DNA from: a phage
Assembly (NCBI GenBank): GCA_025830695.1
Contig: GCA_025830695.1_4111.1
Length of the DNA: 64,000 bases
Strand: one strand, 5' to 3'
Within the stretch, counting starts at the first letter, position 1. The number at the start of each line of letters is the position of its first letter. Made by a program: the position numbers and the translations under genes. Of this stretch, positions 7,262 to 7,765 are shown one piece after another. The notes beneath the pieces were generated by a model. That model saw only the letters and a list, made by a program, of their open reading frames with translations. It was not told the DNA's origin and made no database searches.

Positions 7262-7765
7262 ATGAAATCTATTATTGCCAATAACGAAATCACCGCAAAA
7301 ACTGTACGTCTTGTTACGGAAGGTGCAAGTGAGGTCATGGCAATCTCTAAAGCACTTACTTTAGCAGAAAATCAAGGATTGGATTTGGTGGTTATTGGTG
7401 CAGGTGATGAACCTGCTGTCAAAATTACAGATCTTAACAAATACAAATATGAGTTGAAGCAAGCTGAAAAGGCTTCTCTTAAAAAACAACGACAAAATGC
7501 CGTGAGTATTAAAGAGATTCAATTCAACTTTGGTACACAAGAGCATGATTTGCAGATTAAAGCAAAAAGTGCTGAAAAATTCCTTGATGAAGGAAAACAT
7601 GTACATATTGTAATGAAAACTTCAGGACGTGGAACTAATGCATCAGTAATTCAAGCAAATATTAATGCAATGGAATCATTCGTTAATCGTTTGGGTAACG
7701 TTTCATATGTTCAAAAAGTCGAGTTCCAAGGTAAAAAGGTAACCTGTACTGTCAAAGTAAAATAA
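7262..7765 (+). CDS. infC: translation initiation factor IF-3 homologue
   Basis: co-linear with bacterial IF3 over both domains: VRL, GLDLV.I....EPAV.I.D, KEIQF, FL.EGK, GRG, Q...F.GKK; length 167 aa. Confidence 0.75.

Follow-up and report, generated by a model that had tools for sequence, protein, structure and literature searches.

The element considered here is a homologue of infC, the gene of translation initiation factor IF3, carried by a stretch of phage DNA of 64,000 nucleotides (NCBI GenBank assembly GCA_025830695.1, contig GCA_025830695.1_4111.1), which is called the window below. An earlier note on this DNA had read the product of 167 amino acids as an IF3 homologue possessing both the N- and the C-terminal domain, and had named a search with the profiles of the two domains as the check by which this claim should stand or fall. 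The search recovers both domains, and the cut-offs of the Pfam models and of NCBIfam TIGR00168 are exceeded. The gene and its parts are laid out as follows.

7262..7765, plus strand: phage infC, encoding the IF3 homologue of 167 amino acids, from an ATG start codon to TAA as the stop.
7248..7251, plus strand: Shine-Dalgarno core GGAG, 10 nt 5' of the infC ATG, by direct reading of the sequence.
7262..7432, plus strand: IF3 N-terminal domain, residues 1-57, acidic (Pfam IF3_N, AlphaFold2, Foldseek).
7433..7501, plus strand: interdomain linker, residues 58-80, Lys-rich, net basic and helical (AlphaFold2 helix 58-79); its Y63 is the equivalent of Y75 in E. coli.
7502..7762, plus strand: IF3 C-terminal domain, residues 81-167 (Pfam IF3_C, Foldseek, conserved residues).
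7616..7633, plus strand: remodelled codon-facing loop K119-T-S-G-R-G124, which replaces R129-F-R-G-R-E134 of E. coli and has S121 at the R131 position.

Identity, fold and origin of the phage IF3

The Pfam model IF3_N (PF05198) covers residues 7-71 of the product at E 5.8e-16 (58.9 bits, cut-off 26.9), and IF3_C (PF00707) covers residues 81-165 at E 8e-14 (51.8 bits, cut-off 34.8). The infC equivalog TIGR00168 gives 110.4 bits at a cut-off of 60, with positions 7-154 of the 170 in the model covered, and PHROG 9787 ('translation initiation factor') is matched from end to end, residues 1-167 lying on profile positions 1-167 of 168 (E 6e-71). The closest relatives of the phage protein by sequence among the solved structures are the IF3s of E. 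coli, Thermus and Geobacillus (E about 1e-17).

The predicted structure leads to the same family. We built an AlphaFold2 model from 29 homologues and compared its fold with the PDB by Foldseek; the model (predicted local distance difference test, pLDDT, 83.4) consists of an alpha/beta N-domain, with strands and a helix across residues 14-56, a single long helix at residues 58-79 and a beta-alpha-beta-alpha-beta-beta C-domain. The top PDB matches are IF3 only, with template modelling scores (TM-scores) of 0.70-0.75 against ribosome-bound full-length IF3 (5lmn_X, 9ss1_F3), and the isolated domains superpose at a root mean square deviation of 1.9 Å, the N-domain on 6o6d and the C-domain on 1tig. 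The two-domain architecture and the helical Lys-rich linker are common to the phage and the E. coli factor, as is the charge pattern of an acidic N-domain followed by a basic linker and C-domain. Both ends of E. coli IF3, an N-terminal tail of 9 residues and KKKQ at the C-terminus, are absent from the phage protein, whose N-domain hairpin near Q33 is also 2 residues shorter. It has only 4 arginines where E. coli IF3 has 15, and the conserved Arg positions 66, 112, 116, 129 and 168 (E. coli numbering) are occupied by Lys, a bias that may be due to the AT-rich genome.

The 1.5 kb around infC are 100% identical to Escherichia phages Sharanji, vB_Eco_slurp01, SP27, G17 and SHEFM2K and 99.2% identical to 121Q, all of them Asteriusvirus (Rak2-like) jumbo myoviruses of about 350 kb, and the protein itself shares 99-100% of its residues with its counterparts in Sharanji, 121Q, slurp01 and SP27. 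The infC genes of the Rak2-like phages (121Q gp47, Sharanji gp294, PBECO4, slurp01, GAP32_313, CBB_318) represent the same gene as that in the window, which is placed as it is in these phages, 3' of a Dda-like helicase and 5' of a ClpS-like gene. By tblastn an IF3 homologue is present in 95 phage records; the Rak2-like ones come from phages of Klebsiella, Erwinia, Yersinia, Cronobacter, Pectobacterium, Serratia, Salmonella and Xanthomonas, and more distant copies are found in a Vibrio phage, in Agrobacterium phage Atu_ph07 and in metagenomic huge phages. That the gene is phage-encoded, as the earlier note had held, is borne out both by its identity in the Asteriusvirus genomes and by a conserved synteny which is specific to phages.

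The thought of contamination, of a capture from E. coli in the very recent past or of a decaying pseudogene has in its favour only that IF3 genes normally belong to cells, and we consider it effectively refuted. The identity to E. coli IF3 is about 30% over the full length (38% over the best 120 amino acids), the local G+C content of 33% is like that of the rest of the window, and dozens of jumbo phages keep the same gene order around IF3. The pairwise ratios of nonsynonymous to synonymous substitution rates (dN/dS) within the clade are 0.07-0.20, even with dS above 1: the phage infC is under purifying selection. An exhaustive HMMER search of 1.8 billion representatives revealed no close cellular donor. 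Six representatives score below 1e-30, apparently all of the phage clade or metagenomic, after which there is a continuum at 28-45% identity, and the nearest metagenomic relatives lie on contigs of up to 330-620 kb.

The gene is already known. It is annotated as infC or translation initiation factor IF-3 in the relatives (for instance, 121Q gp47 and Sharanji gp294), it has a PHROG family of its own and it has been discussed in papers: the CBB paper mentions IF-3 homologues in GAP32, 121Q, PBECO4 and Rak2, and the Sharanji paper lists IF3 and says that its function in phages cannot be definitively stated.

Promoter, transcript and neighbouring genes

Around infC the following features are relevant to its expression and its setting.

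7189..7217, plus strand: sigma-70-type promoter, TTGACA (7189-7194), 17 nt, TATAAT (7212-7217); the sole 12/12 match in 1..20000.
7779..8324, plus strand: ClpS-like adaptor-domain protein of 181 amino acids, domain at residues 74-144 (Pfam ClpS, E 2e-5, 24.7 bits, cut-off 23; PHROG 15940).
8396..8941, plus strand: KTSC-domain protein of 181 amino acids (Pfam KTSC, E 6.3e-14), the third gene of the conserved cluster.
11298..11322, plus strand: terminator-like hairpin with a T-run, from the terminator scan; the putative transcript end.

The own consensus promoter that had been ascribed to infC holds, as a perfect match, as a member of an enriched class and through the conservation of its position in the relatives. 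Sites of the type TTGACA-N17-TATAAT with at most one mismatch number 21 in the window, all on the plus (coding) strand, against 2.2 ± 1.6 in shuffled sequences (about 10-fold), and the value of 21 was reached in 0 of 100 shuffles; a low-stringency general promoter count in the first 20 kb gave no excess over shuffles. We aligned the infC upstream regions of eight Rak2-like phages and of the more distant Vibrio phage 2.275.O. Both hexamers stay in register across the eight, despite a mean column identity of 54%, the promoter being kept in position in Ecwhy_1, Turkey5, Muenster, Hallingskeid, Munch, GAP32 and XbC2, with TTGACA, TTGACT, TTGACG or TTTACT at -35 and TATAAT, TATATT, TACAAT or TACCAT at -10; upstream of IF3 in the Vibrio phage the -10 TATAAT alone can be recognised. 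The GGAG of the Shine-Dalgarno sequence is conserved in the aligned relatives as well. The -35 hexamer overlaps the TGA stop of an upstream open reading frame of 64 amino acids, and transcription is predicted to start near 7224, which gives infC a leader of about 37 nt. An Rfam scan of the window returned tRNAs only, and no RNA leader or regulatory motif upstream of infC. According to this analysis infC is very probably transcribed from its own sigma-70-type promoter.

The terminator scan found no site on the plus strand between 7217 and 11298, and we infer a transcript of about 4.1 kb which would span infC and the next four genes and end at 11298..11322. The literature searched contained no transcriptome for this phage group. 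Six TTGACA-N17-TATAAT sites of the window are perfect, those at 7189, 25372, 39457, 41864, 59361 and 60723; the near-consensus sites span 6993..63869 on the plus strand, most of them among short hypothetical genes at 22-64 kb, a region that looks like an early-gene block and includes the rpoD-like sigma gene of the phage. A second promoter-like site (6993..7021, plus strand, 11/12, TTGACA-17-TATGAT) overlaps the start codon, at 6998, of the 64-amino-acid reading frame, and since its -10 hexamer lies inside this frame it cannot serve it. Far upstream, at 2131..2159, there is a perfect 13-bp hairpin, AAAAGGAGCAACA...TGTTGCTCCTTTT, flanked by T-runs on both strands; it resembles an intrinsic terminator that acts in both directions where two convergent gene blocks meet.

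The gene that follows, at 7779..8324, is probably co-transcribed with infC. Its ClpS-like product carries an N-terminal extension of about 70 amino acids before the domain and is a weak match to E. coli ClpS; in the NDDYTP stretch of the latter both Asp residues align with DD in the phage protein, and the preceding Asn is Leu. The KTSC domain of the third product has been described by Iyer et al. as an RNA-binding domain related to lysyl-tRNA synthetase, and its XbC2 homologue is annotated as 'structural protein'. The conserved order is a Dda-like helicase, two small open reading frames, IF3, the ClpS-like protein and the KTSC-domain protein, and it is found in Asteriusvirus, Alcyoneusvirus, Mimasvirus and phages Munch and Hallingskeid, as well as in a metagenomic lineage with only 46% identity and in Vibrio phage 2.275.O. 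In the last (2.275.O._10N.286.54.E11) the gene of ribosomal protein S21 (RpsU; 3515..3760 of locus L009) stands between those of IF3 and the ClpS-like protein, which makes a cluster of four genes, two of them encoding translation-initiation components. A Clp component adjoins IF3 in every Rak2-like phage examined, and such genes outside the window lie at L009 3858..4214 and L010 1673..2932. In Atu_ph07 a gene for a ClpX-like ATPase precedes IF3, and in one bacterial genome (L015) a ClpC-like gene adjoins it.

Ribosome-binding residues and the codon-facing loop

The C-domain of IF3 is the part that binds the 30S subunit and blocks subunit association. We aligned the window protein and 35 clade members of at least 50% identity (a clade of 36 with the window protein) with 143 other IF3s from the exhaustive search and with E. 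coli IF3, residues 16-156 of which were checked against the sequence of a solved structure; the set of typical IF3s used for comparison numbers 126. The equivalents of R25, D52, L53, D69, K72, Y75, K82, K94, E95, D106, K110, G121, G132 and R133 are kept in 33-36 of the 36 clade members, and those belonging to the C-domain (K94, E95, D106, K110, G121, G132 and R133) in 35-36. The N-domain conserves the equivalents of R25, D52, L53 and, as Lys, R66; in the linker those of Y75, K82, K86, K87 and K/R89 are conserved across the clade. Among the nearly invariant residues, Y75, D106, K110, G132 and R133 bear on the binding of 30S and on the dynamics of the linker: IF3 with K110L does not bind 30S, and Y75N disturbs the linker dynamics and the selection and fidelity of the start codon. 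What is established is an intact IF3 that is subject to selection, retains the determinants of ribosome binding and has a conserved promoter of its own.

The departures from the IF3 consensus cluster on the face of the C-domain that is turned toward the P-site. Position 131 is R or K in none of the 36 clade members, where V, A, T, S, I, Q, E or N stand instead, as against 111 of 126 typical IF3s; E134, present in 95 of the 126, is replaced in the clade, and so is F130, and R99-P100 has become N-F. In the window protein RFRGRE of E. coli has turned into KTSGRG, so that the Arg by which E. coli IF3 contacts the start codon is lost, R99 is N and Y70 is L. The mapping of the loop is identical in the HMMER and MAFFT alignments. 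The absence of Arg at 131 marks a functional variant and is compatible with membership in the IF3 family, for mycoplasma and mitochondrial IF3s are also without it. The loss of R131 and E134 throughout the clade was not found stated in the records or papers on these phages.

The roles of R131 and R99 are known from other IF3s. In Thermus 30S pre-initiation complexes Arg123, which corresponds to E. coli R131, bonds U+2 and later the +4 base, and Arg91, which corresponds to R99, bonds A+1. The E. coli mutant R131P initiates more from non-AUG codons, on leaderless mRNAs and with initiator tRNAs altered in the three G-C pairs (3GC); mycoplasma IF3 has P, F or Y at 131, and the loop of mitochondrial IF3 is KKGK, which likewise relaxes discrimination. 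A loop devoid of R131 and E134, together with the change of R99 to N, would probably make the inspection of codons less stringent. The clade-wide loss of R131 and E134 fits the idea of altered fidelity without proving it, and can be taken as circumstantial support. In E. coli R131P, mycoplasma and mitochondrial IF3 the change goes along with starts other than AUG, with leaderless mRNAs or with initiator tRNAs of an unusual kind, and in this the phage is different, with about 98% of its genes starting at ATG behind Shine-Dalgarno leaders.

The same residues bear on a simpler explanation, that of a plain dosage supplement: an IF3 of ordinary fidelity would top up a limiting factor in a long infection with a large burst, once host transcription has ceased, or in cold or nutrient-poor settings in which the number of initiation factors per ribosome is critical, and neutral drift of an AT-rich genome would account for the changes in the loop. 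The phage factor keeps every near-invariant residue of IF3, phage genes with AUG and a Shine-Dalgarno sequence are what a normal IF3 favours, IF3 is sub-stoichiometric in E. coli at about 0.15 per ribosome, and a supplementing role is what the authors of related genome papers assume. Drift is hard to reconcile with a position 131 that is non-basic in 36 of 36 sequences, though the AT-rich Lys is used at other conserved Arg positions; F130 and E134 are replaced too, and mutation of R131 gives a clear fidelity phenotype in E. coli. We regard this explanation as possible, if on the whole less than likely.

That the core of the C-domain and the linker are conserved and the codon-facing loop is not can also be read in terms of ribosome availability. 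The factor would then act in anti-association or splitting of subunits, or displace assembly or silencing factors such as RbfA from the 30S subunit, and so mobilise idle or hibernating ribosomes in slow-growing hosts. According to the literature the C-domain of IF3 alone carries the anti-association activity, and IF3 releases RbfA from the mature 30S subunit; the phage genome also encodes a protein of the HPF/S30EA type, and Iyer et al. suggested that in group 2.2 jumbo phages IF3 and the KTSC protein serve to rescue ribosomes or to support phage translation. The N-domain and Y75, which serve tRNA-coupled dynamics and fidelity, are conserved all the same and favour a complete role in initiation, and we find a factor of this kind unlikely.

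The altered mRNA-contacting loop could, finally, belong to an inhibitor or decoy, which would occupy the IF3 site of the 30S subunit and block host initiation, or distract a host defence or the ClpS-like adaptor; the ClpS-like gene is always adjacent, and in Atu_ph07 it is the ClpX-like ATPase gene that stands next to IF3. The phage, though, relies on the same ribosomes, no feature exempts its mRNAs from such a block, and the strong conservation of the functional residues of IF3 suits an active factor, so that an inhibitor or decoy seems to us highly improbable.

A proposed role in initiation and its meaning

The host infC uses an AUU start codon, by which its translation limits itself. The phage gene starts with ATG in the window and in all seven IF3 genes of the clade examined, and it would thereby escape the AUU-based control that limits host infC. 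Excess IF3 strongly represses mRNA initiated at AUU. The phage gene likewise stands outside the cellular organisation, an infC-rpmI-rplT operon with an AUU start; the gene order infC-rpmI-rplT is displayed by a cellular homologue (P0030), and the autoregulated AUU by E. coli.

We propose that the phage encodes a genuine and functional IF3, which would bind the 30S subunit and enlarge or replace the IF3 pool, probably with laxer inspection of codons. We would give this reading a probability of about 60%, and within it a real change of fidelity has a chance of roughly one in three. Host RNA polymerase would transcribe infC, probably early, as the first gene of a transcript for IF3, the ClpS-like and the KTSC protein, and the AUG start would set the phage IF3 free from AUU autoregulation. 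The factor would bind the host 30S subunit at the normal IF3 site and raise, or progressively replace, the host IF3 pool; over a long infection with host expression shut down, the subunits would stay apart and ready to initiate on phage mRNAs. It is a more tentative suggestion that the KTSGRG loop and the N at R99 might result in a laxer inspection of codon-anticodon pairing and of the +4 base than that exercised by host IF3, and that the kinetic checkpoint before 50S joining might be smaller.

Several points weigh against this proposal. R99 is naturally variable among bacteria (R in 65 and S in 30 of the 126), so that the clade is set apart by its changes at 130, 131 and 134 only. The loss at 131 is not general among phages: at the same place Atu_ph07 has RFKGRE and the P0028 lineage KLKGRA, both basic at 131, and the Vibrio phage has RLHGRA with His, which makes the loss a trait of the Rak2-like clade and not of phage IF3 as such. 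The timing of expression is judged from the promoter type, and the phage encodes its own RpoD-like sigma factor. The literature search found no experimental study, biochemical or genetic, of any phage IF3. Of the 125 annotated genes of Sharanji, 122 have ATG as their start codon and 3 have GTG, a count softened by the preference of gene callers for ATG, and the consensus promoters inspected by eye lie about 30-45 nt 5' of ATGs led by Shine-Dalgarno sequences, a spacing from which it follows that their mRNAs are not leaderless. Given such starts and leaders, it is not evident why the phage should need relaxed fidelity.

The start codons were counted on the sequence of Sharanji because indels break the transfer of its gene coordinates to most of the window, only 42 of 117 mapped starts falling on start codons. 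From about 25000 to 64000 the window is not collinear with Sharanji (OR545507.1), the Thr tRNA, for example, being shifted by about 890 nt; the window comes either from a related and distinct Asteriusvirus isolate or from one with indel differences in the early-gene region.

We looked for a phage trait that would call for a relaxed IF3 and rejected three candidates. Numerous non-AUG starts are at odds with the share of about 98% ATG in the Sharanji annotation, and leaderless early mRNAs with the distance from promoters to starts given above. The third was a tRNA with a CAT anticodon (48865..48943) as a dedicated initiator: its G1-C72 is paired, and its anticodon stem is GCCCC/GGGGT, without the G29-G31:C39-C41 pairs of an initiator. 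It also has C4-G69, C5-G68 and G27-U43. This tRNA resembles E. coli tRNA-Ile2 and presumably decodes AUA after lysidine modification, not AUG. It is one of six tRNA genes that ARAGORN places at 45550..51031 on the plus strand (Gly-tcc, Ser-tga, Ser-gct, 'Met'-cat, Asn-gtt and Thr-tgt); the Gly tRNA is missed by Rfam, and an Arg-tct tRNA of the Sharanji record was not returned by ARAGORN in the window.

One may go further than the proposal above and imagine the Rak2-like IF3 as naturally permissive: retaining 30S binding and anti-association but rid of the Arg that senses the start codon, and made from an unregulated AUG, it would displace host IF3 and alter the choice of start sites, or else the kinetics with which 50S joins, in the infected cell, and it might form a dedicated module of translation takeover with the ever-adjacent ClpS-like adaptor and the KTSC protein. 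We hold this bolder version to be rather doubtful. If it were true, the phage IF3 may also affect the AUU-dependent synthesis of host IF3, and the adaptor might, for instance, direct host factors to ClpAP.

Annotated and discussed as it is, the gene adds no new element to the catalogue of phage genes. The IF1, IF3, S1 and S21 of huge phages (Al-Shayeb et al. 2020) belong to the same proposed theme, the redirection of host translation at initiation, with IF3s that are independent lineages of 31-42% identity. The phage infects E. coli K-12, for which IF3 genetics, reporters, reconstituted translation and cryo-electron microscopy are best developed, and it offers a convenient experimental entry. 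Phage initiation factors have been repeatedly cited as a sign that large phages redirect the translation of their hosts, and the replacement of R131 and E134 in the loop, seen throughout the Rak2-like clade, offers a well-defined hypothesis for mutagenesis to test.

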